From the NCBI RefSeq assembly GCF_056746865.1, contig NZ_CM163382.1: a stretch of DNA of 64,000 nucleotides; one strand, given 5' to 3'. Each line of letters opens with the position of its first letter. The first letter of the stretch is position 1. This document shows, one piece after another, positions 234-55,512 of the stretch. The translations under genes were made by a program, and so were the position numbers. Below the pieces are notes generated by a model that saw only the letters and a program-made list of their open reading frames with translations, was not told the origin of the DNA and made no database searches.

Positions 234-359
234 AAAAATGTTCCCGTTCAGGCCATGAGCACAGCATTTTCGTACTGCATAAAAATACCGAAGATACCGT
301 TTCAGTGGCAGTTAGATAATGTAACCTTCCTTCTGTTGTGATCGGTATTCTACTCATGA

Positions 360-1454: not shown

Positions 1455-1462
1455 ATCTGAGT

Positions 1463-1500
1463 CAACAACATCCTGCCTTCGTGCAGGATGTTGTTTTTGT
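1463..1500 (+). terminator. Rho-independent terminator after hcp
   Basis: Inverted repeat caacaacatcctgc / gcaggatgttgtt followed by a T-run. Confidence 0.6.
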
Positions 1501-1674
1501 ACGTGTAAAAAATGAGTGTCAGTAAGGAGTTACGCTTTCATGAGGGAGATGGCGGATGCCGGAAACCCGGGCGGTAGCGTACCTGAAAATGTAAAGATGA
1601 GTGTAACGCTGCACTGGCACCCTTTGCTGCATGGTAAGAATCATTTGGTCCGTGAATAAATCAGGGAGGTCATT

Positions 1675-3633: not shown

Positions 3634-4472
3634 TGGAAACGGCACCCGTGCAGTACGCCATTGTGGATGGCGCTGTGGAGGAAGGATTGCTGGATTTTCT
3701 GAACGAGGTGAATCCCCCGCACTGTTGTCTGTATGCAGAACCCATACAACTGGATCTGGTCGCGCTAGCCCCCTATCTCGTGGAAGTCGTTCCGGAGGTT
3801 GAAGCATGGCTGAGTGTTAAGGCGTCGCCATGGGGAATATATCTGACTTCTGAGTCATCCATGCGTGAGCTACAGCAACACTTCAGACGTTATCTGTGGG
3901 TTAGGATCCCCGAACAGGAGAAACCTGTTCTCATGCGATTTTATGATCCCCGGAATATATGGGTATTAGTGGAAGTTCTGACCCCCCGCCAGCGTCTTTC
4001 TTTTATCAGTCCCGTCAGACAGCTAAGTACCCGTTATGGTGAAGAATGTCGTGAGGATAATTTTTCTTCCGTCCGTCCCGCAGAAACTATGAATATAAGG
4101 GCAGAACGGCCATCACAACTGACGCTGAGTTACAGACAATATAGCCAACTGGAACGAAAGGCACGGGATAATTATCTTGATATATTATCTGCATTTATCG
4201 AAGAAAATGTAGATAAAAACGGATGGGATGATTCATCAAAAGCTGAATCATCCCGAATTCTGGCAGAAGATTATTTCTCTTTTTGCCAGTCATTAAATAT
4301 AGCAGATGATCGTTCCGTCAGAACAATGACGCTTATATTACTGAAAAAAAATATAATCGATCTCAGATATATTCCGGATGACTGGTATGAACAACTCAGC
4401 AATCAGTCATACCCGGGACATATTCGGGTACATGAACTTGCACAACAGGAACTGGGATTTATCCCACAATAA
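3630..4472 (+). CDS. DUF4123-family T6SS effector adaptor (Tap/Tec-like)
   Basis: 280-aa ORF overlapping the vgrG stop (ATGA); N-terminal YAIVDGA motif typical of DUF4123 adaptors. Confidence 0.7.
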   Translation: MMETAPVQYAIVDGAVEEGLLDFLNEVNPPHCCLYAEPIQLDLVALAPYLVEVVPEVEAWLSVKASPWGIYLTSESSMRELQQHFRRYLWVRIPEQEKPVLMRFYDPRNIWVLVEVLTPRQRLSFISPVRQLSTRYGEECREDNFSSVRPAETMNIRAERPSQLTLSYRQYSQLERKARDNYLDILSAFIEENVDKNGWDDSSKAESSRILAEDYFSFCQSLNIADDRSVRTMTLILLKKNIIDLRYIPDDWYEQLSNQSYPGHIRVHELAQQELGFIPQ

Positions 4473-4493
4473 AAAGACAAACGGATAGATTAT

Positions 4494-6065: not shown

Positions 6066-6131
6066 GTGATATTACAGAAATTAAAAGTGAACAGTATAAT
6101 GAGTATTTTCCCCTTTTGAGAGAGAATAATT

Positions 6132-7142
6132 ATGAAGGCAAAACATTTAATATCGGTTATTTTACTGTCAGGAGTTGTTATGGGAACTGGATTTTGCTCT
6201 AACGATAACCAGCAAAAAATTCGCAGTAAGTTTAATATTGAAGAGTCATATTGTGCCATTAAGACTAATGGCGTCCTCGGGTTCAGTAACCGAAGAAGTG
6301 CCTGGCGGGCAAATGGTGATTCAACCGGGGCCATATCCAGCACCAATGCCATGATGCTGATGGCGAATGGAGAAAATGAAATCAGTCTGGAGATTGGGGC
6401 ATTAGGATGGTTTTCTGACAAGCCTGCCAGTATGGAAGAACGGGGGCGTTTTTTTCCAAAAGCAGGATGCAGCCTGGATTTGGTTCGTTTTATTAAACAG
6501 GAGGAAACGCTGCTTTCTTCAATAAAAGTGACCATCAACCAGCAGGGCATACCTGAAGCCCGGCCAGACAGCGTGCATCCCGTTATCCGGAAAGAGATTT
6601 TGGCTGAGCAGGCGGAGCCAGGATTTATTGATCCAGATTATTTTGATGAAACCTATTTCCCGAAAGGGATGAAGGTGTATCAGTTCACTCAAAAAGTTAC
6701 CGTGACAGGGCTTCCTGAATGGGCCTGGACGCGGGCAACCCCCTATACCGGAAGCGACGAGCAGTTACGGAAGTTAAAAGCCGCCTATACCGAAATGGCA
6801 AGCATCATCAGTAGCCGGGACAGGGCACGTCTGAAAGCTTATAACAAAGAGGCGCTGAAGGCATGGTCAGCCACAACCGGTGACTCTGAGGATGACATAT
6901 TACTCTCACTCTTCTCAAAAGATAATGTGGAGGGAGGGAAAGCCAGAATGCAGCCCATCAGGTGGGACGATTATGCCGTCCGGGTTATGAATGGTGGACG
7001 TATGGTGCAGCTATATAATAAATCGAAACCAATATATTCCCCACTGACTTACCGTTTTACAGATGAAAGTGGTGAAGAGCGTATGGGGTATTACGCTCCG
7101 GTATTTTCGCTGATTGATGGTCAGTTTATCCCTGTTACTTGA
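6132..7142 (+). CDS. Candidate cognate immunity protein, secreted or lipoprotein
   Basis: 336-aa ORF with N-terminal signal peptide MKAKHLISVILLSGVVMGTGFC (lipobox-like Cys); position directly after the candidate effector. Confidence 0.4.
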   Translation: MKAKHLISVILLSGVVMGTGFCSNDNQQKIRSKFNIEESYCAIKTNGVLGFSNRRSAWRANGDSTGAISSTNAMMLMANGENEISLEIGALGWFSDKPASMEERGRFFPKAGCSLDLVRFIKQEETLLSSIKVTINQQGIPEARPDSVHPVIRKEILAEQAEPGFIDPDYFDETYFPKGMKVYQFTQKVTVTGLPEWAWTRATPYTGSDEQLRKLKAAYTEMASIISSRDRARLKAYNKEALKAWSATTGDSEDDILLSLFSKDNVEGGKARMQPIRWDDYAVRVMNGGRMVQLYNKSKPIYSPLTYRFTDESGEERMGYYAPVFSLIDGQFIPVT

Positions 7143-7172
7143 TTAACCTGTTGGGCTACAAATCAGGATGTC

Positions 7173-7216
7173 CGGTAAGGTGATTATTACTGAGTTAAGC
7201 ACCTTACCGTTTTTTA
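7173..7216 (+). terminator. Rho-independent terminator closing the hcp–vgrG–effector unit
   Basis: Stem cggtaaggtg / caccttaccg followed by TTTTTT. Confidence 0.5.
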
Positions 7217-8379
7217 AATTTTTTGTCGCTGATATTCCAGACAGGAAAACAATATGCCTTTAGCTGCCAGATTAAACGACAAAGGTACCGGCACAGGGAA
7301 AGATCACGTAACGCTGCTTTTTTGTACTAAATAATTCGCATTTTATGTTTAAAATTTGAGATATTCCTCATTACCTGAGGCTGTTTTTTATTACTTATAC
7401 ATGATCAAATACTCCTTACATAATTAAGGGGAACAAAATGGAACTTAAAAATTGATGGAACATATTTCTGTTATTCCCGATTACAGACAAGCCTGGAAAG
7501 TGGAACATAAATTGTCGGATATTCTACTGTTGACTATTTGTGCCGTTATTTCGGGTGCAGAAGGTTGGGAAGATATAGAGGATTTTGGGGAAACACATCT
7601 CGATTTTTTAAAACAATACGGTGATTTTGAAAATGGTATTCCTGTTCACGATACCATCGCCAGAGTTGTATCCTGTATCAGTCCTGCAAAATTTCACGAG
7701 TGCTTTATTAACTGGATGCGAGATTGCCATACTTCAGATGATAAAGACGTCATCGCAATTGATGGAAAAACGCTCCGGCACTCTTATGACAAGAGTCGCC
7801 GCAGGGGAGCGATTCATGTCATTAGTGCGTTCTCAACAATGCACAGCCTGGTCATCGGACAGATCAAGACGGATGAGAAAACCAATGAGATTACAGCTAT
7901 CCCAGAACTTCTTAACATGCTGGATATTAAAGGAAAAATCATCACAACTGATGCGATGGGTTGCCAGAAAGATATTGCAGAGAAGATACAAAAACAGGGC
8001 GGTGATTATTTATTCGCTGTAAAAGGAAATCAGGGGCGGCTTAATAAAGCCTTTGAGGAAAAATTCCCACTGAAAGAATTAAATAATCCAGAGCATGACA
8101 GTTACGCAATGAGTGAAAAGAGTCACGGCAGAGAAGAAATCCGTCTTCATATTGTTTGCGATGTCCCTGATGAACTTATTGATTTCACGTTTGAATGGAA
8201 AGGACTGAAGAAATTATGCGTGGCAGTCTCCTTTCGGTCCATAATAGCAGAACAAAAGAAAGAGCCAGAAATGACGGTCAGATATTATATCAGTTCTGCT
8301 GATTTAACCGCAGAGAAGTTCGCCACAGCAATCCGAAACCACTGGCACGTGGAGAATAAGCTGCACTGGCGTCTGGACG

Positions 8380-10270
8380 GTGTGCCGCAGGAACACAAGA
8401 TAGCTGCATAAGGATACGCAGTTAGCTTTTGTATAAGCTCATAAAGAGATGGTGGAAGGCCCACCGGGATCGGCTGTCGGAAGCAGATTCCAAACCACTT
8501 CATGCTGCTGTGGTAAAGAGCCATGGTAGTGAGCGATGAAGTAAAGCGTGAGTGAAAACTCAGCAGGTAAGATACTCATGAGACGAGTGAACCCGAACCC
8601 ATGTTGACGCGTCGTAAACCAGAGACTGACATCAAAACCGAAGGGGCGTCCAGCCTTCGGGATAAGTCTGCGAGTGAATTCCGAATGCTGCGCAGACGGT
8701 GTCCGGCGTAAAGTGGGCGTGACGGAGTATCAGGCTCTTCCTGGGAACTGCGGGAACCTGTCGTTGTGATGATAAGGGAGAAATGCAAGTCACTGAATTG
8801 GCGAGCATGAAAGTACCGATGCACAGCACAGGGACGGAGCCGTTCGTAGTAGTGATGAAGCTTCTGTAATGGAGGTGGAGCGAAGGGGCGGCATCAGACA
8901 GTCTTTGGACAGTGTTCAACTGAACATGTTCAGGAGGAGACAATGACAAAGACAAAAGCGTTTAACATTGATAAGTCACTGGTGGTCAGCGCGTACAGGC
9001 GAGTGAAGACCAGTGCAGGCGCGGCGGGAATTGATAAGCAATCGCTGGCGGACTTTGATAAACGGTTAGTTGATAATCTGTACAAAATCTGGAACCGACT
9101 TTCTTCAGGAAGTTATTTCCCACCGGCAGTGAAAGCGGTGGCAATTCCGAAGAAATTGGGTGGAGAGAGAATTCTGGGTATCCCGACAGTCAGCGATCGT
9201 ATCGCGCAGACGGTGGTAAAACTGGCCTTTGAGCCACAGGTTGAGCCACATTTTCTGGCAGACTCTTACGGCTACAGACCGAATAAATCGGCACTGGATG
9301 CTATAGGGGTAACGCGTAAGCGTTGCTGGTATTACGACTGGGTACTGGAATTTGACATCAAAGGGCTGTTCGATAACATCCCGCACGAACTGATAATGAA
9401 AGCCGTGGACAAACACAATCCGGCCCGGTGGGTAAAATTGTATATACAGCGGTGGCTGACAGCGCCGATGGTGATGTCAGACGGAGAAGTCAGAGCACGA
9501 ACAATGGGAACGCCGCAGGGAGGTGTCATAAGTCCGTTGCTGGCAAACCTGTTCATGCATTATGTGTTTGATAAATGGCTGGCAAAATATTATCCGAAAG
9601 TGCCGTGGTATCGATATGCTGATGATGGCATTTTGCATTGTCACAGCGAAGCAGAAGCGACTGAAATGCGAGAAGTATTACGCAAAAGATTTAGCGAATG
9701 CGGACTGGAAATGCATCCGGAGAAAACGCGAGTTATCTACTGCAAAGATGGAAGCCGGAAGGGTGATTATGAACATACCATGTTCGACTTTCTGGGGTAC
9801 ACATTCAGGCGACGCGTAGTAAAGAACGTTAAGCGAAACAGTCTGTTTGTAAGTTTTACCCCCGCAGCGAGCAAATCAGCGCTAAAGGCAATGCGTCGGG
9901 AAATCAAAGCGACAGGGATAAGGAAAAGAGTGGATTTAAGCATTGAGCAGATAGCGAAATGGATAAATCCAAAACTGAATGGCTGGATAAATTATTACGG
10001 GCGATATACCTGTTCGGAATTATACAGCGTGTTCAGATATATCAATAAAGCACTGGTGAGGTGGGGGCGTAAGAAATATAAAATGCTCAGCCGATACAAG
10101 ACAAGAGCCTCAAAATTTCTGGAAGAAATGGCGAAGCGAAGTCCACAGTTGTTTGCCCACTGGCGTCTGAAGATGAGAGGCGGACTTGTTTGATGGGAGC
10201 GGTATGAGCCGAGAGGTTCACGTACCGTTCTGCGAGAGGCTGCGGGGGAGGTTCCTGCGGCCTACTCACC
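8380..10270 (+). mobile_element. Group II intron (bacterial, with RT/maturase ORF)
   Basis: Boundaries from aligning interrupted copy 1 to uninterrupted copy 2: shared …cgtctggacg | intron starts GTGTGCCG … ends …cctactcacc | tggtaatgaatg resumes. Domain V-like GAGCCG…CGTACCGTTC lies just after the RT stop. Confidence 0.7.
8943..10193 (+). CDS. Group II intron-encoded reverse transcriptase/maturase
   Basis: 416-aa ORF with RT motifs (…RYADDG… YADD box) and a maturase X-domain motif (NGWINYYG). Confidence 0.85.
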
Positions 10271-10493
10271 TGGTAATGAATGAAGACGACTGCAAAATAA
10301 GAAGAGGAAATGCAGCAGAATTATTTTCAGGGATACGGCACATCGCTATTAATATTTTGACGAATGATAAGGTATTCAAGGCAGGGTTAAGACGTAAGAT
10401 GCGAAAAGCAGCCATGGACAGAAACTATCTGGCGTCAGTCCTTGCGGGGTGCGGGCTTTCGTAATCTTTCCCTGGATGTGAAAAGCAGCTGCG

Positions 10494-11779
10494 GACAGGG
10501 AAAGATCATCAGAAGTACACTTTTTGTACTAAACAATTCGCATTTTATGTTTAAAAATTGAGATATTCCTCATTACCTGAAGCTGTTTTTTATTGCTTAT
10601 ACATGATCAAATACTCCTTACATAATTAAGGAGAACAAAATGGAACTTAAAAAATTGATGGAGCATATTTCTATTATCCCCGATTACAGACAAGCCTGGA
10701 AAGTGGAACATAAATTATCGGATATTCTACTGTTGACTATTTGTGCCGTTATTTCTGGTGCAGAAGGTTGGGAAGATATAGAGGATTTTGGGGAAACACA
10801 TCTCGATTTTTTGAAGCAATATGGTGATTTTGATAATGGTATTCCTGTTCACGATACCATTGCCAGAGTTGTATCCTGTATCAGTCCTGCAAAATTTCAC
10901 GAGTGCTTTATTAACTGGATGCGTGACTGCCATTCTTCAGATGATAAAGACGTCATTGCAATTGATGGAAAAACGCTCCGACACTCTTATGACAAGAGTC
11001 GCCGCAGGGGAGCGATTCATGTCATTAGTGCGTTCTCAACAATGCACAGCCTGGTCATCGGACAGATCAGGACGGATGAGAAATCTAATGAGATTACAGC
11101 TATCCCTGAACTTATTAACATGCTGGATATTAAAGGAAAAATCATCACAACTGATGCGATGGGTTGCCAGAAAGATATTGCAGAGAAGATACAAAAACAG
11201 GGAGGTGATTATTTATTCGCTGTAAAAGGAAACCAGGGGCGGCTAAATAAAGCCTTCGAGGAAAAATTTCTGCTGAAAGAATTAAATAATCCAGAGCATG
11301 ACAGTTACGCAATTAGTGAAAAGAGTCACGGCAGAGAAGAAATCCGTCTTCACATTGTTTGCGATGTCCCTGATGAACTTATTGATTTCACGTTTGAATG
11401 GAAAGGTCTGAAGAAATTATGCGTGGCAGTCTCCTTTCGGTCAATAATAGCAGAACAAAAGAAAGAGCCCGAAATGACGGTCAGATATTATATCAGTTCT
11501 GCTGATTTAACCGCAGAGAAGTTCGCCACAGCAATCCGAAACCACTGGCACGTGGAGAATAAGCTGCACTGGCGTCTGGACGTGGTAATGAATGAAGACG
11601 ACTGCAAAATAAGAAGAGGAAACGCAGCAGAATTATTTTCAGGGATACGGCACATTGCTATTAATATTTTGACGAATGATAAGGTATTCAAGGCAGGGTT
11701 AAGACGTAAGATGCGAAAAGCAGCCATGGACAGAAACTACCTGGCGTCAGTCCTTGCGGGGAGCGGGCTTTCGTAATCT
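10494..11779 (+). mobile_element. H-repeat (ISAs1-family) element copy 2, intact
   Basis: Left IR acagggaaagatca and right IR tcttgccctg; direct orientation, about 20 bp after copy 1. Confidence 0.75.
10640..11776 (+). CDS. H-repeat-associated ISAs1-family transposase
   Basis: 378-aa [35 protein letters not shown]… uninterrupted. Confidence 0.85.
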
Positions 11780-11895
11780 TGCCCTGGTACAGTAAACAAA
11801 CGAAAGTTGTTATTTCAATGGTCAGGGCAAGAGCATGAAGTGTTTACTACACACTATGCTCTTGTCCTGGAGTCAGGTCTTGTTTGGAGGGATAA

Positions 11896-12399
11896 ATGGT
11901 AGATATTGTCGAGGCCGATAAAACGGATATTTATTTCATTCAGGAGAGTGTTTATGGCAAAATCGGGTTGCCAGCTTTTGGTAATACAATAGGACCATCC
12001 GCACAGCAAGTTGTTAAAAAGGTATTCGCTGTCGTTAAAGAACGAGATAAGACACATGCAAAACAGAGATTATTGTTGGAATATAATGGTAACAAACTCT
12101 GGATGAATGCTATTGATGGCAGTGAAGCTATCCTACCAACAGAATTTTCTAAGCGATACGAACTTTCATTATTTAATACTACTAATTTTGGAGAAGATCC
12201 TTTTCCTGATGTTAATTTATATAATAATATGAAATCAAGTTTTTTTGTAAGGTTTGGTGGAACATCCCATCCCGAGGCTTGGGCTATTTATAATGCAAGT
12301 ACGAAAGAGGTTAAATATATAGAAACTGCAAGAGAAATTGATAAAATATTCAGTGATTTTAACTTGAGTGGTACATTGCCAATTCACATTGGTCGATGA
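11896..12399 (+). CDS. Hypothetical protein, AT-rich cargo
   Basis: 167-aa ORF in a low-GC segment between H-repeat elements; no recognisable motif. Confidence 0.35.
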   Translation: MVDIVEADKTDIYFIQESVYGKIGLPAFGNTIGPSAQQVVKKVFAVVKERDKTHAKQRLLLEYNGNKLWMNAIDGSEAILPTEFSKRYELSLFNTTNFGEDPFPDVNLYNNMKSSFFVRFGGTSHPEAWAIYNASTKEVKYIETAREIDKIFSDFNLSGTLPIHIGR

Positions 12400-20862: not shown

Positions 20863-21360
20863 ATGTCTGAATATCGTCGTTATTACATCAAGGGGGGAAC
20901 ATGGTTTTTCACGGTAAATTTACGGAATCGTCGAAGCCAACTTTTGACCACCCAGTACCAGACACTCCGTAACGCCATTATTAAAGTTAAGCAGGCCAGA
21001 CCTTTTGAAATTAACGCCTGGGTAGTTTTGCCAGAGCATATGCACTGTATCTGGACATTACCCGAAAGTGATGATGATTTTTCCTCTCGCTGGCGGGAGA
21101 TTAAAAAGCAGTTCACCCATGCTTGCGGATTGAAAAATATCTGGCAACCGCGTTTTTGGGAGCATGCCATTCGCAATACAAAAGATTATCGCCATCATGT
21201 TGATTATATTTATATAAATCCAGTGAAACATGGCTGGGTAAAGCAGGTGAGTGATTGGCCATTCTCAACGTTCCATCGCGATGTAGCGCGAGGGTTATAT
21301 CCCATTGATTGGGCGGGAGACATAACGGATTTTAGTGCCGGGGAGCGTATTATTTTATAA
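20863..21360 (+). CDS. rayT: REP-associated tyrosine transposase RayT (YafM)
   Basis: 165-aa ORF MSEYRRYYIKGGTWFFTVNLRNRR…; IS200/IS605-like HuH fold; flanked by REP elements. Confidence 0.85.
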   Translation: MSEYRRYYIKGGTWFFTVNLRNRRSQLLTTQYQTLRNAIIKVKQARPFEINAWVVLPEHMHCIWTLPESDDDFSSRWREIKKQFTHACGLKNIWQPRFWEHAIRNTKDYRHHVDYIYINPVKHGWVKQVSDWPFSTFHRDVARGLYPIDWAGDITDFSAGERIIL

Positions 21361-21363
21361 TTG

Positions 21364-21510
21364 TGCGCGGATGCCTGATGCGACGCAGGCGCGTCTTATC
21401 ATGCCTACAAACTTGTGCCGGATCGGTGGGCCGGATAAGGCGTTCACACCGCATCCGGCAATTGTGCACCGGTGCCTGATGCGACGCTGGCGCGTCTTAT
21501 CATGCCTACA
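21364..21510. repeat. REP/BIME array, left part (interrupted by IS)
   Basis: REP units ending …cgtcttatcatgcctaca immediately before the IS left inverted repeat. Confidence 0.7.
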
Positions 21511-23050
<1,540 letters not shown>

Positions 23051-36134: not shown

Positions 36135-36539
36135 ATGAAAACGGTCATCACCTTCGGCACCTTTGATGTGTTTCACGTCGGTCATCTGCGCCTTTTACAA
36201 CGCGCCCGCAAGCTGGGCGAGCGGCTGCTGGTCGGCGTATCGTCCGACGCCCTGAACATCGCCAAAAAGGGCAGGGCACCGGTTTACCATCAGGATGACC
36301 GCATGGCGATTATCGCCGGTCTGGCGTGCGTGGATGGCGTTTTTCTGGAGGAATCGCTGGAGCAGAAAGCGGAGTATTTGCGGGGGTACGGTGCGGATAT
36401 TTTGGTGATGGGCGATGACTGGGCGGGGAAGTTTGACGATTTCTCGTGTGTCTGTGAGGTGGTCTATTTTCCCCGTACGCCATCGGTATCGACGACGGGG
36501 ATCATTGAGGTGATTAGGGGTAAATCAGCCACCTACTGA
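36135..36539 (+). CDS. Glycerol-3-phosphate cytidylyltransferase-like protein (TagD family)
   Basis: 134-aa ORF MKTVITFGTFDVFHVGHLRLLQRARKLG…VMGDDWAGKFD…EVVYFPRTPSVSTTGI; TagD hallmarks (HxGH, MGDDW.GKFD, RT.G.STT). Starts 3 bp after fliJ. Confidence 0.8.
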   Translation: MKTVITFGTFDVFHVGHLRLLQRARKLGERLLVGVSSDALNIAKKGRAPVYHQDDRMAIIAGLACVDGVFLEESLEQKAEYLRGYGADILVMGDDWAGKFDDFSCVCEVVYFPRTPSVSTTGIIEVIRGKSATY

Positions 36540-36594: not shown

Positions 36595-36698
36595 ATGTTT
36601 AAAAAATCGCGTTTTTTCGACATATCCCCAAAACATGTCGATGGCATAAACGTATTCCAACGACATGTTTAAAAATCGCATTTTATCGACATATCCCT
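36595..36698. repeat. Two copies of a ~35-bp direct repeat between convergent genes
   Basis: atgtttaaaaaatcgcgttttttcgacatatcccc (36595..36629) and atgtttaaaaatcgcattttatcgacatatccc (36665..36698). Confidence 0.6.
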
Positions 36699-39154
36699 GA
36701 CGATTCCTTGCCCGCCAGCGCCTCCACAATCACCATCGCCGCCCGTTCTCCCGCCTTGCCATCCATAAACGCATCGCAATAGTGATGACGAATCTCCTTA
36801 AGCCGCGCCAGCAACGCACCCCAGTCAAACGCCTCTGACAACAAATAACGCAGTTCCGCAACATCATGAGCCACCGGCAATATTTCGCGGATTTGCTGGT
36901 CGGCGCTTTCGGGCGTGGAGTAACTTTTCTCACCGTCGAGCAACGCTGCCATTTCCGGAAAGTCGAGCAGGATTACCCGCTTATCAACGTGGATAGCATC
37001 GAAAATAAAGCCGCTGTTATCGGTCAGCACGTAATCGGCCTTTGCCAGTAGCGCCAGCGTGTGGTGGACGGAGTCGGTGCGCTGTTTTAAGTGCCTGCGC
37101 GCCAGGGCCAGCGATGCAGCTTCTTCCGGGCGCGAGCAGGTGCCGTGGTGCAGTTTGCAAATCAGATTCACATTGCCACTTAAGCGCCCCAATTTTTCTG
37201 CCCAGTGGGGCAGGGAGCTTAATGCGCCAAACGTGGGGGCGTAGAGCACCGTAGGTTTACGGGAATCGGGTTGAATATTTTCTGGCAGAATGCGGTCAAA
37301 CGTGCCGTTATGCCAGGCGTCGAAGCGCGGGTTGCCGACTGCTTTTGCATTGCCGAAATGCGCCAGCGCCCGCTGGCTGTAGTGGCTGTAACACAAAATG
37401 CGTTGATAAAAACGGTTCCAGTCGGCGTGGTTCCACGTCTCTTTGGCTAAGCCATACATGGCGCGAACGTTCACCGCTGCCAGGCCATTGAGCGCGGGCG
37501 TGTGGTAGGGGCTGACCAGGCATTTCACCCGCTGACCGTGTGCCTGCATTTCAGATAAGCGCATTCCTTTGAGCTGCGGATCGTCGATGCTTTTTAGCGT
37601 CTCCAGCATTTCATCCAGAAACGGTTTAAACACGCGGTCGTTGATCACCAGCGTGCAGCCTTGCCCCTGCGCCTGTAGGGCGGTGATGATTGGGCGGTAG
37701 AGCGCGTAATGGAAAGAAGTTTCCATAAAAAAGCCGATGGTGTCGGCGATGGGTAACGCGGATGGCTTTGTGATAGCAGGTAACTTATTGAAATAGTGAG
37801 CAATATTATCAGTCATTTTTTTCTCGATATCGCTAAAGCCTGGTCGCTGATAACTAAGGCTCGGGTAACAGGCCAGCCATTTGTCGGCGCGTAGCAGCGG
37901 CTGCCAGCCGTCTTCCAGCGAATGCTCATCGTTGCTCATCTGCTGCGCCAGTTGCGGGTAGTAGCGGCGGTTCACCAGATAAGCGCATACCTTGCGGCAG
38001 TCCCGCGCGTGCACCAGCCCCGGCAAACTTTTTAGCATCGTTCCCTGCGAAATTTCGCCGCCGAGGATCATCACCTGCCAGGGAATTTTCGCCAGGCTCG
38101 CCAGCAGCGTGTTCAGCACCTGAATATGTTTCTCCTGCTTGAGAATAACCGCGTCATCTTCCAGCAGCAGATAGTTTTGCCAGCCGTGCTGTTGCGCCAG
38201 GCGCAGCGCCTGCAAGTGCGACTGACGTCGTCCCCGTTGGCCGTTTTGATCTTCACTGGCGGCAAGGCGGGTGATCTTCTCAGGTGGAATATGCAGCAAT
38301 GCCAGTTCTTCACGGATCTGTTGTAAGCGATCCGGGCGTTTATCCAGATTCACAACAACTACCTGATCGATCGTCTGATGGTTGATCCCTTGGTGATGAG
38401 TGGCGTTATGTAGACTCAGATAAGCATTGCGCAGCAGCGGATCGCTGACGATATCTGTAAGCGCCGCGTTTACAGGCGTGCTGGCCCCGAGAATAAAGTC
38501 TTTATCAAAGGTGTTGTGGCTGTGCGAGATACACAGAATCGTGCGCTCGCCGGGCAGTTGTAGCGGGTTAACGCTGAAATTGTCGGTGAAACTTTTCTCT
38601 TCGCCTAAATTGCAATCATCGTCGTAACGGTGCTTTTTCAGGTAGTTACGGTGATAGCAAAAGGTGCCGTTGAGGATGTTATGTGGGCCAAAGCTGCGGC
38701 TTTGAAAGATGCGATTGATGTGGCTGTACCAGATGGGGATCTGGTCGGAGCCGGAGATGAGCGCCCGGTGTTTTTGCATCTTGGCGATGGTCCAGGAGAT
38801 TTTATCTGCCGGGTAGTAGTCGTCATCGTCCATGCAGAGGATGTATTCGCCGCGCGCCAGTTCGTTGAGCATATTGCGTTTTTTGCCCAGCGGCAGTTTT
38901 TCCGGGTGATGAATATAGCGGATGTTAAAGGCTTCCGGCGTGCCATTGGTCAGGCGGTCGATGATGTGTTGATGGCTTTGCGGGGAATCGTCGAGGATGA
39001 TGAGTTCGCGGCGGTCTGCCGGGTAGTCCTGATAGCGGTACATATAAAGCAGGTACGGCAGGAATGCGCTGCGGTTCCAGGTTGGCGTGACGACGCTGAT
39101 GAACGGTTTTTCGCGCTGGGTGGCGAGTGTTTTGATAATGGTTGGTGTTGGCAT
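36683..39154 (-). CDS. Multidomain transferase: GT2 + GT25-like + TagF-like CDP-glycerol glycerophosphotransferase
   Basis: ORF 36683..39226; start taken at MPTPTIIKTL (39154) because the upstream extension translates a GC-rich repeat. N-term GT2 (VVTPTWNR…ILDDSP…MDDDDYY), middle GT25-like (VVVNLDKRPDRL), C-term TagF-like (VLYAPTFG…KLHHG…LTDNSGFIFDA). Confidence 0.75.
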   Translation of the reverse strand: MPTPTIIKTLATQREKPFISVVTPTWNRSAFLPYLLYMYRYQDYPADRRELIILDDSPQSHQHIIDRLTNGTPEAFNIRYIHHPEKLPLGKKRNMLNELARGEYILCMDDDDYYPADKISWTIAKMQKHRALISGSDQIPIWYSHINRIFQSRSFGPHNILNGTFCYHRNYLKKHRYDDDCNLGEEKSFTDNFSVNPLQLPGERTILCISHSHNTFDKDFILGASTPVNAALTDIVSDPLLRNAYLSLHNATHHQGINHQTIDQVVVVNLDKRPDRLQQIREELALLHIPPEKITRLAASEDQNGQRGRRQSHLQALRLAQQHGWQNYLLLEDDAVILKQEKHIQVLNTLLASLAKIPWQVMILGGEISQGTMLKSLPGLVHARDCRKVCAYLVNRRYYPQLAQQMSNDEHSLEDGWQPLLRADKWLACYPSLSYQRPGFSDIEKKMTDNIAHYFNKLPAITKPSALPIADTIGFFMETSFHYALYRPIITALQAQGQGCTLVINDRVFKPFLDEMLETLKSIDDPQLKGMRLSEMQAHGQRVKCLVSPYHTPALNGLAAVNVRAMYGLAKETWNHADWNRFYQRILCYSHYSQRALAHFGNAKAVGNPRFDAWHNGTFDRILPENIQPDSRKPTVLYAPTFGALSSLPHWAEKLGRLSGNVNLICKLHHGTCSRPEEAASLALARRHLKQRTDSVHHTLALLAKADYVLTDNSGFIFDAIHVDKRVILLDFPEMAALLDGEKSYSTPESADQQIREILPVAHDVAELRYLLSEAFDWGALLARLKEIRHHYCDAFMDGKAGERAAMVIVEALAGKESSGICR

Positions 39155-39197
39155 GGTGTTTGGGTGAGTTAATGGGTGAATGTGATGAATGTGCGTG

Positions 39198-39315
39198 CTG
39201 ATGCCCTCACCCCGACCCTCTCCCACAGGGAGAGGGAGAAAACCAGCGCTGATTTTAACACCGTGCTCGATCGGTTCCCTCGCCCCTTTGGGGAGAGGGG
39301 TAGGGGGAGGGGAAA
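39198..39315. repeat. GC-rich palindromic intergenic repeat (boxC-like; name uncertain)
   Basis: ctgatgccctcaccccgaccctctcccacagggagaggg … cccctttggggagaggggtagggggagggg; related copy at 46549..46668. Confidence 0.6.
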
Positions 39316-39332
39316 AGCGCGCACAGAGCGAC

Positions 39333-40262
39333 TCACGTCAGCAGCGAAAACGCTGAAAGCAGCGGCTCTGCCGCACATAACGACTGAATTTGCTGGCGAA
39401 TCGACGCAGCATTTTCACTCTCTCGCCAGCGTTCAAACACCGCAAAAAGGGCGAAAATATCCTCCTGTCGCAGCGGTGAACCATCCAGCGTCCATAAACT
39501 GATTAACGTGCGGATAAGATAAAAATCGCACACCAGCGGGCAATAATCTGCTCCGTCTGCCTGCCCAATCACCTCATGGTAAACGCGGTAAATCAGCCAG
39601 TTACGCATCATCCAGGGCGCGGTAGCAAAATGCTGTTGCCAGGTGGTTTGCCACTGTGCCTGAAGCTGATGTTGTAACAGGGCTTCGCTGTTGGCGTCAT
39701 GTAGCGCCAGCAAAGGCATCTGCAACGGCAGCGAAGTTTTGCGCGGGCTTTCCGGCAAAATCGACCAGTCAAACGCACAACTGCCGAGCAGCGTCATCAA
39801 CTGGCGCGCCAGTTGTGGCACGGGCGGCAACTGGGCGAACTGTGCCTGTAGCGTGCCTTTTTTCGCATGATCGGCCAGCGCCTGCGGCAGCGTCGTCAAA
39901 CGGGCAAGAATATCTCCGTCTCTGCCCGGCATTTTACTGGCGCGGGAGAGTAAAATCCCGATGGCATACAGGGAAAGCTCTGGGGTTAAATCGGGGAGCG
40001 TGAGGGTACTCAAAATCACCTGGTTTACTATCGCATCGCGCGCGGAAAGCTCTGCGGCATTTTCTTCCACAGGACGGTAGGTGAGCTGTAAATCAAAGGC
40101 CCTGGCATCGTTGAGTACCGCTTCGCAGCTGGCTGGCTCTGTCAGCATCAGGCTCTGGCGAATCTCGTTTTTCCACACCTTGCGGATGTACAAAGGCGAA
40201 TCGGGATATTGCGTCATAAAATTGCGCACGTATTCCGGTTCGTAACATTCAATAAAACTCAT
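39333..40262 (-). CDS. Hypothetical protein in the lfgA–lfgM–lfgN transcription unit
   Basis: ORF 39333..40301; probable start MSFIECYEPEYV at 40262 preceded by GGAAG. No recognisable motif. Confidence 0.45.
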   Translation of the reverse strand: MSFIECYEPEYVRNFMTQYPDSPLYIRKVWKNEIRQSLMLTEPASCEAVLNDARAFDLQLTYRPVEENAAELSARDAIVNQVILSTLTLPDLTPELSLYAIGILLSRASKMPGRDGDILARLTTLPQALADHAKKGTLQAQFAQLPPVPQLARQLMTLLGSCAFDWSILPESPRKTSLPLQMPLLALHDANSEALLQHQLQAQWQTTWQQHFATAPWMMRNWLIYRVYHEVIGQADGADYCPLVCDFYLIRTLISLWTLDGSPLRQEDIFALFAVFERWRESENAASIRQQIQSLCAAEPLLSAFSLLT

Positions 40263-40388
40263 AGGTGGCTTCCAGTCTTTATTACTTTGCGGAATATGCA
40301 ATAAGCGTGCCGGGAATTTTTATAATCAAAAACAAAGGATTGTGAATCAGGCGGAAAATCCGTTTCCGCTATGGGGAAGGTGTTCGCG

Positions 40389-40817
40389 TTATTCCTGATA
40401 CAGAAAATCTGCTTCGTTGCCTAAAAACGACTGGATAAATTCATACTGGCGAATCAACAGATCACCGTTTTTGTCGTTGTAGGTTTTGCAGCGTTCCGCT
40501 TTTTGCTCAAGGCGTTGCCACAACTGTTGTGCTGCCGCTTTTTGTACCGCCGGAAGCCAGGCAAACACCTGCGCCAGACCGTCACGATTTACGCTAACAC
40601 CGAGCATTTTCAGCAGGCTATGCCGCTGATGGCTATGTCCATGCAACTGCTCATAGTGATGGGTTATCTCATCGTTTACCGCCAGCAACTCTTCGCTGGC
40701 GCGGCGAATCATGCAGATCCGCTGACGTTGGAGAAGTTCGCGCAGGGAATCATACAGCGCGTCGTCGTCACGAATTCCCTGCAACAACGCCTTCACCTGT
40801 TGTAACCGGATACTCAC
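40389..40817 (-). CDS. lfgN: Flagellar chaperone FlgN homolog
   Basis: 142-aa helical ORF directly after flgM; FlgN-like. Confidence 0.65.
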   Translation of the reverse strand: MSIRLQQVKALLQGIRDDDALYDSLRELLQRQRICMIRRASEELLAVNDEITHHYEQLHGHSHQRHSLLKMLGVSVNRDGLAQVFAWLPAVQKAAAQQLWQRLEQKAERCKTYNDKNGDLLIRQYEFIQSFLGNEADFLYQE

Positions 40818-41955: not shown

Positions 41956-41971
41956 TGGCACGGCGATTGCT
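41956..41971 (+). promoter_or_regulatory. Sigma-54 (-24/-12) promoter upstream of lfgB
   Basis: TGGCAC GGCGA TTGCT, exact TGGCAC-N5-TTGC match, about 37 bp upstream of the lfgB ATG. Confidence 0.7.
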
Positions 41972-51335: not shown

Positions 51336-52313
51336 ATGCAGGTCGGACTTACATCTTCGTCACTCGCCACCGGCGGCGCGCATAGCGCTGCGGTATCGTC
51401 GTCAACCGTTGCGCCCACTCAGGCGGTGCGGCAAAAACTCCCGGCGACGGCGAGTGAATATCCGGCCTCGCCGCTGATTACCACTCGCCCGCAGCGTTAC
51501 AGCGTGCAGCTTAACGACCAGCTCACCACGTTGCAGCAGGCGGATCACTATCTCGGGCAACTGGAGCAGCAGTTGCTCGATTATCGTCACAGCCAGCGCA
51601 AAGGCGGGCAGGCGCAGAGTTCGGCGCTGATGCAGATGCTGGACAAACGCACCGCGCTTTCCGGCGGTGCGGTGGACCGCCAGTTGCAGCCAGTGTTGCA
51701 GGGGGAAGCGCGGGTGACTTTTCACTCGCCGGATCTGGCGAATCTGGTACACAATCCCACGCCGGGAACGCGCATGTTCAGCGTCTCTGACGGGCGGCAG
51801 ACTCAGCTTTCGGCGGTGATGCTGTCTGAGGATGACAGCGCTGGGCAGTACCAGACGCGGCTGACCAACGCCCTGCGCCGCGTGGGCGTGCAGATGCATC
51901 AAAACGCCGATGGTATAAGTTTCTCCACCACTGAAAAACAGTGGCCCAACATTGAAAGCACCCTAAGCGTGCGCACCGATGGTGATAAATCAGCGTTTAT
52001 GCCACTAAAAACCTTTGCCGAACCGTCGCAGGCGGACCGCTTAGTGCAAAGCCTGCAACAGGGCGGAGCGGGGATTTCTCAGACGTTAGAAAGCATTAAT
52101 CAGCAGCGTGTGCAGATGGCGGTACAGCAGGAAAAGGCGCGGCAGTTGATCGACGGCATGTCGCGCTTCCCGCAAACGGAAAGCGCCGTGCAGGCGTCGG
52201 AAAATCTCGGCGGCGTGCTGGATAGCGCCAATCATAACTATCAGGTTTTATTGCAGGCGGTGAACGGTCAGGCGCGAATTTCCAGCCAGACGGTGAGGAG
52301 TTTATTGGGTTAG
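51336..52313 (+). CDS. lafW: Lateral-flagellar protein LafW-like (function uncertain)
   Basis: 325-aa ORF after flgL; assignment by position in the Flag-2 gene order. Confidence 0.5.
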   Translation: MQVGLTSSSLATGGAHSAAVSSSTVAPTQAVRQKLPATASEYPASPLITTRPQRYSVQLNDQLTTLQQADHYLGQLEQQLLDYRHSQRKGGQAQSSALMQMLDKRTALSGGAVDRQLQPVLQGEARVTFHSPDLANLVHNPTPGTRMFSVSDGRQTQLSAVMLSEDDSAGQYQTRLTNALRRVGVQMHQNADGISFSTTEKQWPNIESTLSVRTDGDKSAFMPLKTFAEPSQADRLVQSLQQGGAGISQTLESINQQRVQMAVQQEKARQLIDGMSRFPQTESAVQASENLGGVLDSANHNYQVLLQAVNGQARISSQTVRSLLG

Positions 52314-52334
52314 GGTTATTGTCATTGTTGCTTT

Positions 52335-52376
52335 TATAGCTATTAAGCTATAGTTTATCTATAGCATAAAAGCTAT
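52335..52376. promoter_or_regulatory. Tandem palindromic operator-like sites upstream of the toxin gene
   Basis: TATAGCtattaaGCTATA and TATAGCataaaaGCTAT, two inverted-repeat pairs ending about 10 bp before the toxin ATG. Confidence 0.55.
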
Positions 52377-52385
52377 GAGGGACCG

Positions 52386-52730
52386 ATGATGTGGGACGTC
52401 GAGACAACGGAGACTTTCGACAACTGGTTTGATGCCCAGACTGTTGCGCTGAAAGAAGATTTACTTGCTGCAATGCTGATTCTTGCTGAGTATGGCCCAC
52501 AGTTGGGCAGACCCTTTGCGGATACGGTTAATGATTCACAGTTTTCAAATATGAAAGAATTACGCGTCCAACATCAGGGAAACCCGGTACGTGCTTTTTT
52601 TGCTTTCGATCCTGCGCGCCGTGGCATTGTATTATGTGCGGGTGATAAAACGGGGTTAAATGAGAAAAAGTTTTATCGCGATATGATCAAGCTCGCTGAT
52701 TCTGAATACCGTAAGCATCTGAAAAAGTAA
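52386..52730 (+). CDS. Type II toxin, RelE/ParE superfamily (HigB-like)
   Basis: 114-aa ORF MMWDVETTETFDNWFDAQ…GNPVRAFFAFDPARRGIVLCAGDKTG…, the toxin class usually encoded upstream of an HTH antitoxin. Confidence 0.7.
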   Translation: MMWDVETTETFDNWFDAQTVALKEDLLAAMLILAEYGPQLGRPFADTVNDSQFSNMKELRVQHQGNPVRAFFAFDPARRGIVLCAGDKTGLNEKKFYRDMIKLADSEYRKHLKK

Positions 52731-52739
52731 GGAACGATA

Positions 52740-53039
52740 ATGGCTACTCTAAAAGAACTGATGGCAAAGCAAAGCCCTGAAAGCCAGGTGCGTATTGCGG
52801 CAAAAGTTGAGGAAATGCGCCAGACCATCGCCTTGCATCAGCTGAGAGAAGAACTCAATATTTCGCAAACGGAAATGGCGGCAGCGATGGGCATTAAGCA
52901 ACCGACTCTTGCAAAAATGGAGCAGGCAGATAACGATCCTCGGTTGTCTACGCTAAAACGCTATGTTGCGGCTTTAGGTGGGGAATTGAGTATCGACGTT
53001 AAACTGCCGAATGGTAAGAGAATTGCATTTCAGATTTAA
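52740..53039 (+). CDS. HTH (XRE-family) antitoxin, HigA-like
   Basis: 99-aa ORF 10 bp after the toxin; HTH segment LNISQTEMAAAMGIKQPTLAKME. Confidence 0.7.
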   Translation: MATLKELMAKQSPESQVRIAAKVEEMRQTIALHQLREELNISQTEMAAAMGIKQPTLAKMEQADNDPRLSTLKRYVAALGGELSIDVKLPNGKRIAFQI

Positions 53040-53057
53040 TTTTGGGGTGCATTTTAT

Positions 53058-53092
53058 GAACCGGATTAGATAAAACGGTATCTAATCCGGTA
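53058..53092. terminator. Bidirectional hairpin between the antitoxin gene and the lafZ-like gene
   Basis: accggattagata aaacgg tatctaatccggt, perfect 13-bp stem. Confidence 0.5.
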
Positions 53093-53096
53093 AACA

Positions 53097-53990
53097 TCAG
53101 CATTTCTGCACAGTATTTAACAACTTCTCTAAATTCTGATACATCGCGCTATTAATATCGCTATTCTGCCAGCTATCCACATTAAAAGTTAATTGCCAGC
53201 TACCGTTGCACTGGTTGCGCAGAACAATATCACTCTCCAGTCGGTTACGAACATATTTATAATAGGTTGTCATTGTCATATTATGCGCTGACAATAAATT
53301 ATCGAGTTTGTCTTTTCCTGGTGCGAGGGTTTGTGACAGTAACGGTACGGAATTATTTTCCTTTCCAGAACTAAGATGAAATATTTTTATTCTTGGACTG
53401 TTAATTGACTCTTTTACCAGTTGCGGGGCGTCAGGTGTACTTTTCAAGTGTGAATACCCCACGGTTGAGCCAACCAATATAACAGCTGCGGCCAACGCTA
53501 ACCCCATCAGTCCTTTATGTTTTTTTCTAACAGGCACATACGGTGTTGTCGAAGATATCTCTTCTGGGGCTGTATCCTGTATCTGGTCGGTAATAATCAG
53601 CGCTTCTGCAGGCGATGACTCCGGCAAAGACACATACTCTTTATTGCATAAGTAACCTTTCTTCGGAATTGTTTTAATAATGTTCTGTTGTTTGCCATCA
53701 TCGTCGATAGCAACGCGCAACGCATGGATCGCCGTCGGCAGGCTGTTTCCGCCGACAATACGGTTCTTCCATACTTCGGCACATAAATAAGATCGCGATA
53801 AAACCACATCGGCATTTTTTGCTAATGTTTCCAGCAAAATAAAATGGTATTCGCCGAGACGACGTGTTTCACCCGTTTCGCAATGTATTAAGGCATTAAG
53901 CGACGGGTCCATCCGCCAGTTGTTGATAATAATACTCATAGTTGAGTTTACCTTAGCAAGGGATAAATGTTTCCTGATAGTGCTTTGCAT
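53097..53990 (-). CDS. lafZ: ToxR/CadC-like membrane-anchored transcriptional regulator (LafZ-like)
   Basis: 297-aa ORF: N-terminal winged-helix OmpR/PhoB-type DNA-binding region, a single TM segment (GLMGLALAAAVILVGSTVGY) and a C-terminal periplasmic part. AT-rich. Confidence 0.6.
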   Translation of the reverse strand: MQSTIRKHLSLAKVNSTMSIIINNWRMDPSLNALIHCETGETRRLGEYHFILLETLAKNADVVLSRSYLCAEVWKNRIVGGNSLPTAIHALRVAIDDDGKQQNIIKTIPKKGYLCNKEYVSLPESSPAEALIITDQIQDTAPEEISSTTPYVPVRKKHKGLMGLALAAAVILVGSTVGYSHLKSTPDAPQLVKESINSPRIKIFHLSSGKENNSVPLLSQTLAPGKDKLDNLLSAHNMTMTTYYKYVRNRLESDIVLRNQCNGSWQLTFNVDSWQNSDINSAMYQNLEKLLNTVQKC

Positions 53991-54424
53991 AAAGCACAGT
54001 CTTATACGTCCCTGAGAAGATGATTTTTCTGCGTGATAATTAATATTTTATGGTGATAAGATTATTCTTAATCACTATATAGCGTGGAAATGTAACGAAA
54101 TGACAGGACAGGTACAATAGCCAAATGTGTACTATTTGCAACGCAATGTAAATTTTGGCATCAGTACATTGAGAACAAAACGCGATAATTGATGACAATC
54201 TTAACTATATCAAGCGTTTGATAAAGACATATTTTGATACCTGGCCATGTGGCAGATATTGCTAATAATCTTTTTATCTGAATTTAAACTCTGCTTTTTT
54301 TAGCTAAAAGTGGCATCGGATAATACGTGGCGAAAAAATTTTAACGGCGATTTTAAGTTTGCTCCTGAGGTGTCGTTTTTACAGGGTATCGAAACGAAAA
54401 CGATTAATCCCAAGGAGCAGTATC

Positions 54425-55339
54425 ATGTTATCTATTAACACCAATAACGCCTCAATGGCCGCCGTTAATGCAATCAGCAAAAGCAGCTCTTCTCTGTCTA
54501 CATCTATGGAACGCCTGGCGACAGGTAACCGGATTAACTCTTCTGCCGATGACGCCGCAGGCAAACAAATTGCTAACCGTCTGACAGCACAGTCCAGCGG
54601 TATGGGTGTTGCGCTGAGCAACATCAATGATGCCACCGCGATGCTGCAAACCGCTGACAGCATGTTCGACGAAATGTCTGACGTGCTGGGTCGTATGAAA
54701 GACCTGTCAACTCAGGCAGCGAACGGCACCTACAGCGACGACGACCTGCAGGCGATGCAGGACGAATACGACGAACTGGGCCAGCAGATGTCTGACATGC
54801 TGCAAAACACCACTTACGGCGGCACCAACCTGTTCGGTGTTTCCGGTACCAGCAACACCGGTACTGACGGTCTGTTCCAGAGCGCGGTAACTTTCCAGGT
54901 GGGCGCGGAATCTTCCGACACCATGACCGTGAATATTTCAAGCCAGCTGAATACCCTGGTGACGGATCTTTCTGCAATCAGCAACTCCTTTAGTGCGGAT
55001 CAGGCTGACACCACTGGCACCGCAGGCGTTTCTGGCGGTACTGAGCTGACTGCGTCTGGCTCGGCTAACCAGATGATCACCAGCATCTCTACCGCGATGG
55101 ATGACGTGTCTCAGATCCAGTCCAAGCTGGGTGCCTCTATCAACCGTCTGAACGACACTGCCAACAACCTGACCAGTATGCAAGACAACACCGAAGTCGC
55201 TATCGGTAACATCATGGATACCGACTACGCGACGGAAGCGTCCAATATGACCAAACAGCAAGTGCTGATGCAGACTGGCATCACCATGCTGAAACAGTCC
55301 AACAGCATGTCCAGCATGGTTTCCAGCCTGCTGCAGTAA
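54425..55339 (+). CDS. lafA: Lateral flagellin
   Basis: Start MLSINTNNASMAAVNAISKS… within ORF 54359..55339; flagellin N- and C-terminal domains (…LMQTGITMLKQSNSMSSMVSSLLQ). Confidence 0.9.
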   Translation: MLSINTNNASMAAVNAISKSSSSLSTSMERLATGNRINSSADDAAGKQIANRLTAQSSGMGVALSNINDATAMLQTADSMFDEMSDVLGRMKDLSTQAANGTYSDDDLQAMQDEYDELGQQMSDMLQNTTYGGTNLFGVSGTSNTGTDGLFQSAVTFQVGAESSDTMTVNISSQLNTLVTDLSAISNSFSADQADTTGTAGVSGGTELTASGSANQMITSISTAMDDVSQIQSKLGASINRLNDTANNLTSMQDNTEVAIGNIMDTDYATEASNMTKQQVLMQTGITMLKQSNSMSSMVSSLLQ

Positions 55340-55496: not shown

Positions 55497-55512
55497 TGGC
55501 ACGCCTTTTGCC
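55497..55512 (+). promoter_or_regulatory. Sigma-54 (-24/-12) promoter upstream of lafB (fliD)
   Basis: TGGCAC GCCTT TTGCC, exact TGGCAC-N5-TTGC match, about 32 bp upstream of the lafB ATG. Confidence 0.7.

Follow-up and report, generated by a model that had tools for sequence, protein, structure and literature searches.

A FliB-related protein lacking the iron-sulfur domain, encoded beside a glycosyltransferase gene in the Flag-2 lateral-flagella locus of Escherichia coli

What is the role of the protein encoded between the export chaperone gene lfgN and a multidomain glycosyltransferase gene in the lateral-flagella (Flag-2) locus of E. coli? The window, i.e. the whole stretch of 64,000 nucleotides analysed here (contig NZ_CM163382.1, assembly GCF_056746865.1), contains this locus, and the 1.3 kb around the gene are 100% identical in E. 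coli 118UI and other strains. An earlier note on this DNA had placed an open reading frame (ORF) at 39333-40262 on the minus strand between these two neighbours; the placement is correct and the coordinates are exact for the ATG start. It had also called the product unknown and without an assignable motif, which does not stand, since the protein is clearly homologous to the C-terminal domain of FliB, the flagellin lysine-N-methylase, and already has the name LafV (De Maayer et al. 2020, PMC6993521). In that survey 342 of 592 loci had FliB-like proteins, LafV1-LafV10, encoded between lfiJ and lfgN in variable region 1 (VR1) of Flag-2, and these were taken as evidence of flagellin methylation; the name LafV is credited there to earlier work. 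Table S3 of the same paper lists all ten types with 228-318 aa and without a conserved-domain match, and a 2024 paper on E. albertii repeats the label 'lysine-N-methylase'. The ORF of the window is the lafV of VR1, as it lies between lfiJ and lfgN of a Flag-2 locus and codes for a FliB-related protein of 309 aa (~300-318 aa in LafV). What this LafV can still do is the question, because it is without the part of FliB that carries the iron-sulfur (Fe-S) cluster.

Homology to FliB and the missing cysteine domain

The relation to FliB was seen with family profiles as well as by profile-profile alignment. The NCBIfam equivalog model for FliB (NF038110, flagellin lysine-N-methylase) matches LafV with E=3.2e-11 and 43.4 bits, the curated cut-off of 85 not being reached, and the match covers only positions 106-367 of the 373 in the profile. 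On aligning the cysteine-less (Cys-less) family with five long FliB sequences by hhalign, a probability of 100% (E=1.9e-39) was obtained over 284 columns, in a register where residues 26-309 of LafV correspond to residues 109-401 of FliB (the FliB_C domain, PF27117); the two also align over the first ~16 residues, which hold a PEYVxxF motif. A scan of LafV with a Pfam model set that does not include PF27117 gave no family match, and the precomputed PF27117 assignment is present on all full-length homologues (40-92% identity to LafV) and on the FliB_C-only neighbours of glycosyltransferases described below. The five long FliB sequences share eight invariant cysteines (C17, C22, C26, C27, C79, C88, C103 and C125), of which LafV keeps 0/8: T17 stands in the C17 column, T42 in the C125 column, and the other six fall in the deleted segment. 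The N-terminal CX4CX3CC motif (C17, C22, C26, C27) is thus absent from LafV. The CxxCxxCC family (PF03692, a YkgJ-type zinc/iron-chelating domain) has no match in LafV at E<=1, whereas in the long FliB P0145 it matches residues 17-125 (E=5.9e-4), which is the part missing in LafV. In Salmonella FliB, C17, C22, C26 and C27 ligate a [4Fe-4S] cluster, and the C17A/C22A/C26A/C27A protein has neither the cluster nor methylation activity (Wang et al. 2021, PMC8598068). As LafV is without all eight of the conserved cysteines, it should be incapable of the methyl transfer that depends on the Fe-S cluster in Salmonella FliB, and as it is without the four that are essential there, it lacks the defining features of FliB though it is homologous to its C-terminal domain.

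Searched exhaustively with phmmer, 1.84 billion representatives yielded 67 relatives, and their alignment falls into three grades. Long FliB proteins (392-405 aa) have the N-terminal CX4CX3CC, a cysteine-bearing stretch of ~75 residues and then 'SLSLSC'; a short grade (~300-324 aa) is without the ~75-residue stretch and keeps a CxCxxC motif and an 'LxC' cysteine; a second short grade is Cys-less and holds the LafV of the window with relatives from Escherichia, Citrobacter, Pseudocitrobacter, Phytobacter, Enterobacter and Leminorella. On rooting a neighbour-joining tree with long FliB, a single clade of short forms was obtained, within which the Cys-less forms are found as one subclade of 13 and one independent loss elsewhere. 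The short clade descends from FliB by deletion of the CxxCxxCC/[4Fe-4S] domain. Two further matches may be mentioned. An apparent domain fusion (P0139, 1676 aa, six matched stretches) was rejected, as it is a Big_2 repeat protein and its match is spurious. A full-length FliB-like protein with the variant cysteine motif CNGGGCLCTCC (P0131, 405 aa, L031 6001-7218) is encoded outside flagellar loci; on one side is a radical-SAM gene next to efp (epmB-like), on the other the groES/groEL region. This context suggests that flagellin may not be the only substrate of FliB-type enzymes.

The part that was kept is well conserved. A NYLxYRLYHD motif and the polar residues R35, S37, N80, N221, Y225 and Y228 persist from long FliB to LafV, and we read N221, Y225, R226, Y228 and H229 from the alignment as a retained functional site, whose ligand (flagellin, S-adenosylmethionine (SAM) or a partner) conservation does not tell. 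One possibility is that LafV is itself a flagellin lysine-N-methylase, with SAM binding and chemistry in FliB_C and with the Fe-S domain an accessory for redox gating or stability that is dispensable in the lateral system. The homology over 284 columns and the polar motifs common to long and short forms are in its favour, as are the product of FliB, which is S-adenosylhomocysteine (SAH) and not 5'-deoxyadenosine, and the label used in PMC6993521 and in NCBI records. It has to be set against the sole biochemical study (PMC8598068), where the CX4CX3CC cysteines that LafV lacks were essential for both cluster and activity, and against the score of LafV below the curated FliB cut-off. Together with the evidence from partner and substrate given in the next section, this makes methylase activity in LafV unlikely.

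The predicted structure adds little to the choice. An AlphaFold2 (AF2) model of LafV from a 56-sequence alignment (predicted local distance difference test (pLDDT) 93.6, predicted template modelling score (pTM) 0.92) shows a small sheet of four strands at the N-terminus and then ~14 helices. The earlier statement that no Rossmann or SAM motif is present holds, with no Pfam match and a mostly helical model; neither the alpha/beta fold nor the glycine-rich SAM loop of class I (Rossmann-fold) SAM methyltransferases is found, and the modelled fold is not that of a Rossmann, SET or SPOUT methyltransferase. No relatives of LafV were detected in the PDB, either by Foldseek (best E 0.49, TM 0.20) or by a sequence-profile search (no significant match), and no membrane-like stretch was seen in LafV (highest 19-residue Kyte-Doolittle mean 1.37). 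Structure prediction and fold search, which had been proposed as a check, thus gave a confident model with no resemblance in the PDB and with no functional lead.

Is such a truncated protein still in use? Judged from sequence comparison, lafV is a real, maintained gene under purifying selection: pairwise comparison with seven orthologues (84-94% identity) gave a dN/dS (the ratio of nonsynonymous to synonymous substitution rates) of 0.12-0.20 and no internal stops, the same measure being 0.12-0.15 for the glycosyltransferase, 0.06-0.11 for lfgN and ~0.03 for lfiJ. Full-length homologues are present in at least 24 species, and 1278 of 5426 complete E. coli genomes carry the gene. The alleles are unusually divergent for E. 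coli, with identity of >=99% to the window allele in only 55 genomes and of 90-95% in 1202, and the product name given by the Prokaryotic Genome Annotation Pipeline (PGAP) varies across E. coli records between 'hypothetical protein' and 'lysine-N-methylase'. A functionless remnant of fliB without its 5' part might be suspected from the missing catalytic domain and from the deletion or decay of Flag-2 in many E. coli strains (PMC11420993). Yet the dN/dS values, the full length of the gene in 1277 of the 1278 carrying genomes, the length and N-terminus kept across genera of beta- and gamma-proteobacteria, and the conserved promoter-like element upstream all contradict it, so that this explanation is hardly credible and effectively refuted by the conservation data.

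The glycosyltransferase partner and the presumed substrate

The constant neighbour of lafV is the 847-aa transferase gene. Its product has an N-terminal GT2 domain, a middle part that is weakly GT25-like (E=0.048) and a C-terminal part that is weakly TagF-like (Glyphos_transf, E=0.016). Using a genome scan with one genome per species we obtained 24 loci with Cys-less LafV, and in 24/24 lafV is directly upstream of a homologue of the glycosyltransferase gene on the same strand. The two genes touch or overlap in Citrobacter; in E. coli they are set apart by a spacer of 178 nt with a repeat element. The CxCxxC grade contributes 10 further loci (two strains of Ca. Fukatsuia, two enterobacterial contigs, Pandoraea pulmonicola, two metagenomic contigs and the three loci of a reverse test), where the order is glycosyltransferase (~470 aa) followed by FliB_C, with gaps of ~70 nt down to overlaps. 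For the reverse test the N-terminal and middle domains of the glycosyltransferase were used as query and three matches were picked regardless of LafV; in all three (Burkholderia pseudomallei, Enterobacter cancerogenus and Erwinia sorbitola) a FliB_C-only gene coding for 299-312 aa directly follows the glycosyltransferase gene. On taking all loci together, the glycosyltransferase adjoins a short-form FliB_C gene in 34 of 35 (Enterobacterales, Pandoraea and Burkholderia), and the role in the flagellin-modification pathway that had been suggested earlier from placement is by this measure well supported. The strain counts in Table S3 of PMC6993521 run in parallel (LafV6 219 and GT2-1 222; LafV1 112 and GT2-3 99). 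In the papers on LafV that we consulted, all later than the original Flag-2 description (Ren et al. 2005), we found no mention of the missing Fe-S domain or of the one-to-one pairing with GT2-1.

Also, the remaining parts of the cassette recur. The CxCxxC loci, those of the reverse test included, repeatedly carry genes for a Glyphos_transf (TagF-like) protein and for a cytidylyltransferase, where E. coli has the fused domain and the TagD-like gene, and a TagD-like homologue adjoins FliB_C-only genes in loci L005, L034 and L038. In B. pseudomallei the lateral-flagellin cassette (L036 6001-12668) reads GT2, FliB_C, Rossmann-type methyltransferase, HAD hydrolase, an unknown gene, Glyphos_transf, flagellin and MotA; its first four genes overlap in turn, and the core parts are those of VR1 in E. 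coli. It may be noted that in Ca. Fukatsuia symbiotica CP021659 (L004 6470-7980) two ORFs stand in place of one for the glycosyltransferase and fliI is broken too, with the FliB_C gene intact, and that in the other Fukatsuia strain (L003) the glycosyltransferase and FliB_C genes are both whole. A genome labelled Chryseobacterium sp. 18061 (L020) carries an enterobacterial Flag-2 segment whose layout is near-exactly that of Citrobacter sp. 18056 from the same project (L023), and the assembly is probably mislabelled or mixed.

Full-length FliB is found in other company. The long FliB P0145 stands alone in a fliC-fliB-fliA arrangement, and lafV is not a stand-alone gene beside flagellin, lafA being 14 kb away. 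Flag-1 loci have methylase islands and glycosylation islands that are almost mutually exclusive (PMC4875605). The near-obligate pairing of short FliB_C with one glycosyltransferase family is left unexplained if LafV is a methylase, and the cassette of B. pseudomallei has its own Rossmann-type methyltransferase beside FliB_C. That the Fe-S site is supplied in trans by the glycosyltransferase was also considered and rejected, as only 2 conserved cysteines are present in its N-terminal and middle domains.

The presumed substrate, LafA, has 6 lysines in E. coli, each of which lies in a conserved terminal region. From residue 93 to residue 233 there is no lysine, and Ser/Thr make up 29% of this central part. 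A methylase would find no lysine in the exposed centre, and still purifying selection acts on lafV in Escherichia. On the other side, most lateral flagellins keep 1-3 central lysines, which would suit a methylase. Across the lateral flagellins the count is 0-6 with no clean relation to the grade of LafV, zero being seen only in Escherichia and a few others, and we have dropped the idea that cysteine loss in LafV is linked to lysine loss in LafA across genera.

The reading to which we give about an even chance is that LafV, without catalysing a reaction itself, serves the lateral-flagellin glycosyltransferase as a partner or as its recognition subunit. On this reading a sigma-54 promoter dependent on LafK would drive lafV and the transferase gene as one transcript, ahead of flagellin synthesis. 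LafV would associate with the transferase and, by way of its retained FliB_C surface (the NYLxYRLYHD motif included), recognise or hold cytosolic LafA, such that the Ser/Thr-rich centre would be glycosylated before export; the glycan would probably bear glycerol phosphate, given the TagD-like and TagF-like parts. Pseudoenzyme partners of this kind are familiar, where a catalytically disabled homologue is kept as the binding or targeting partner of an active enzyme. The physical interaction between LafV and the transferase, the binding of flagellin and the absence of methylase activity are what we infer. Some support for contact comes from a fused AF2 model, LafV-(G4S)6-transferase residues 1-476 (815 residues; alignment of 92 rows, i.e. 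15 paired plus unpaired), which has a pTM of 0.84 and a pLDDT of 88 with disorder only in the linker and tail; undocked bodies would give a pTM of ~0.55, an estimate and not a computed control. The model is weakly suggestive of contact between the two proteins. Of the more specific roles that the earlier note had offered for the ORF, the specificity factor is plausible and near the best explanation, as an interpretation of the loci, whereas a chaperone of the small kind does not agree with a 309-aa globular model and no similarity to FlgN, FliS or FliT.

Several points weigh against a non-catalytic partner. The adjacency of genes speaks for a shared pathway, not for a complex, and the fused model has no control pair or predicted aligned error, and the tether favours contact. 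A basal Cys-less member (P0112, 300 aa, L033 7001-7903), the one exception among the 35 short-form loci, is encoded at a non-flagellar locus with no glycosyltransferase; it is flanked by the gene of an OprD-type porin and by a weak match to class I methyltransferases. In Citrobacter, where LafV is also Cys-less, LafA has 1-3 central lysines, therefore the lysine argument is clean only for Escherichia. The NYLxYRLYHD motif and the polar residues could equally mark a retained catalytic pocket that binds SAM or lysine. The quadruple cysteine mutant of Salmonella FliB may simply be misfolded, and the Fe-S cluster might be an accessory, since FliB yields SAH as in ordinary SN2 methyl transfer.

The same cassette admits that LafV is another kind of enzyme, one which acts on the glycan and modifies, transfers or polymerises part of a glycerol-phosphate-containing chain through the FliB_C pocket. 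As a constant part of the cassette it accompanies a GT2 protein and TagF-like and TagD-like parts, its polar residues are conserved, and a fold with no solved relative leaves the chemistry open. Nevertheless, no catalytic motif of known transferase families was found (no Pfam match, and only FliB in NCBIfam), no nucleotide-binding fold was recognised in the mostly helical model, and no particular reaction is indicated, so that we regard such an enzyme as improbable. The position of lafV beside lfgN and lfgM raises a further alternative, by analogy with these two, of an export chaperone or regulator that binds LafA or the hook-associated proteins; Salmonella FliB forms membrane-proximal oligomers that are thought to meet the FliS-flagellin complex, which would agree with it. 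But the Flag-2 locus already carries its own FlgN, FliS and FliT-like proteins (and, by annotation, a LafK-type sigma-54 activator gene), LafV matches none of the FlgN, FliS and FliT models and at 309 aa is three times their size (~100-150 aa), and the linkage with the glycosyltransferase is not explained. A chaperone or regulator is consequently very improbable.

In summary of the grades, we hold with high confidence that this ORF is lafV, that its product is a FliB_C-only descendant of FliB without the Fe-S domain, that it is functional, and that it belongs to a lateral-flagellin modification cassette. A wider generalisation, that FliB_C is a portable flagellin-handling module which has been cut free of the Fe-S domain and serves as an obligate subunit of flagellin glycosyltransferases in lateral loci of gamma- and beta-proteobacteria, is tenable, though we put it somewhat short of an even chance. 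If it were true, the label 'lysine-N-methylase' would be wrong for about a quarter of complete E. coli genomes and for the 342 of 592 Flag-2 loci of PMC6993521, and the short proteins would give an oxygen-insensitive handle on the uncharacterised C-terminal three-quarters of FliB.

Gene start, promoter and neighbouring features

The features discussed are collected in Table 1. From the ATG at 40262 the translation begins MSFIECYEPE, and the mechanical ORF reaches further, to a TTG at 40301 (322 aa). The ATG is almost certainly the true start, because PGAP places it there in the 100%-identical E. coli genome NZ_CP032515, because the N-terminus MSxIECYEPEFVR is kept in homologues down to ~40% identity, and because the TTG falls within the promoter-like element. 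For the glycosyltransferase, PGAP gives the start in the table and the mechanical ORF reaches 39226. The gene order is lfiJ, the TagD-like gene, glycosyltransferase, lafV and lfgN, with lfiHIJ found beyond the TagD-like gene.

Table 1. Positions of lafV, its partner genes and nearby elements in the window
Feature	Position	Strand	Basis
lafV coding sequence, 309 aa, FliB_C-only protein without CxxCxxCC/[4Fe-4S] domain	39333..40262	-	ORF, PGAP annotation, profile matches
Multidomain glycosyltransferase, partner gene downstream of lafV	36683..39154	-	Pfam GT2 E=4e-18
TagD-like glycerol-3-phosphate cytidylyltransferase, same modification cassette	36135..36539	+	TIGR01518 E=1.6e-33 (below cut-off); CTP_transf_like E=2e-20
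lfgN, FlgN-type export chaperone, neighbour upstream of lafV	40389..40817	-	Pfam FlgN E=2.6e-19; annotated flgN
Putative sigma-54-type -24/-12 promoter element cGGCACGcttaTTGCA	40297..40312	-	One mismatch to TGGCAC-N5-TTGCW; ends 35 nt upstream of lafV ATG
lfgN-lafV intergenic region, 126 nt, with promoter element and GGAAG ribosome-binding-like site	40263..40388	-	Sequence and upstream alignment
Imperfect 51-nt inverted repeat (intergenic repeat element), lafV-glycosyltransferase gap	39190..39325	.	GC-rich
lafA, lateral flagellin, presumed cassette target	54425..55339	+	Annotated lafA; composition computed

The core GGCAY-N5-TTGC of the element upstream of lafV is kept in 23 of 25 orthologous loci despite diverged flanks. 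Window-wide, 5 sigma-54-like sites were found against 3.7 expected, which is not above chance, and the promoter argument therefore rests on position and conservation. These suggest that lafV and the transferase may be expressed with the hook-basal-body class, before flagellin. A scan for sigma-70 promoters and terminators gave nothing convincing near lafV. Two other sigma-54-type elements are well placed, a perfect one (TGGCACGGCGATTGCT, 41956-41971 (+)) just upstream of lfgB and one with a single mismatch (55497-55512 (+)) ~47 nt upstream of lafB (fliD); along with the lafV site they suggest a map of the LafK/sigma-54 regulon for the Flag-2 locus.

The repeat in the gap between lafV and the glycosyltransferase gene has a core, CCCTCTCCCACAGGGAGAGGG, that occurs twice, here and at 46578 between lfgG and lfgH. 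It may resemble the boxC/REP-type elements of E. coli. It is absent in Citrobacter, and an Rfam scan of lafV and its flanks, the repeat included, gave sub-threshold chance matches only.

A RelE/ParE toxin gene, an HTH (helix-turn-helix) antitoxin-like gene and then a transcriptional regulator gene (~52389-53039) lie between the lfgL-proximal genes and lafA, in a region of low GC (0.45 in 52001-54000). Just outside the lfhA end of the locus there are rayT, a REP-associated tyrosine transposase gene, and a copy of the IS3-family element ISEc31 (~20863-22732); the coordinates of both groups were transferred from the annotation of an identical strain. Positions 1-12000 have a low GC of 0.40-0.48 (one 2-kb bin 0.57) and a strongly positive GC skew of 0.09-0.19, unlike the remaining window.

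Comparison with known systems

The gene lafV and its general role in flagellin modification are already known or suspected. In the papers that we consulted we found it stated neither that LafV is without everything shown to be catalytic in FliB nor that it is tied to one glycosyltransferase family across two proteobacterial classes. No new kind of system is opened by this; a likely systematic misannotation ('lysine-N-methylase') is flagged, and a conserved four-part cassette (GT2 protein, FliB_C, TagF-like and TagD-like) is defined for the decoration of lateral flagellin, B. pseudomallei included. Of a methyltransferase family whose fold is not known and whose mechanism is disputed, only FliB has been characterised. 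A conserved natural version without the Fe-S domain sets the two halves of the enzyme apart, and such a protein should be soluble and insensitive enough to oxygen to reveal the ligand of FliB_C, be it flagellin, SAM or a partner enzyme.

On comparing the window protein with LafV6 of enterobacterial Flag-2 VR1 (PMC6993521), the two are the same gene in position (lfiJ-lfgN), size (~311 aa) and genera; our account differs from the published one, which treats LafV as a methylase orthologous to FliB. With pseudoenzyme or accessory subunits of protein glycosyltransferases the likeness would be functional only, as there is no relation in sequence or fold. Salmonella FliB and LafV have their genes in flagellar loci, and each presumably has cytosolic flagellin, prior to its export, as target. 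They differ in that LafV is without the CxxCxxCC domain (FliB residues ~17-108) and all four [4Fe-4S] ligands, that it is paired with a glycosyltransferase where full-length FliB is alone beside fliC, and that its presumed substrate in E. coli is without a central lysine. A further related system is that of the CxCxxC-type short FliB_C proteins (Serratia, Rouxiella, Buttiauxella, Erwinia, Enterobacter cancerogenus, Pandoraea and Burkholderia pseudomallei), which share with LafV the ~75-residue deletion, the length, the glycosyltransferase partner and the cassette parts (TagD-like, Glyphos_transf) and form its sister clade in the neighbour-joining tree. In these, however, CxCxxC and 'LxC' make four possible metal ligands that are lost in E. 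coli LafV, the glycosyltransferase gene precedes FliB_C, and the transferase is of ~470 aa without the fused TagF-like domain.

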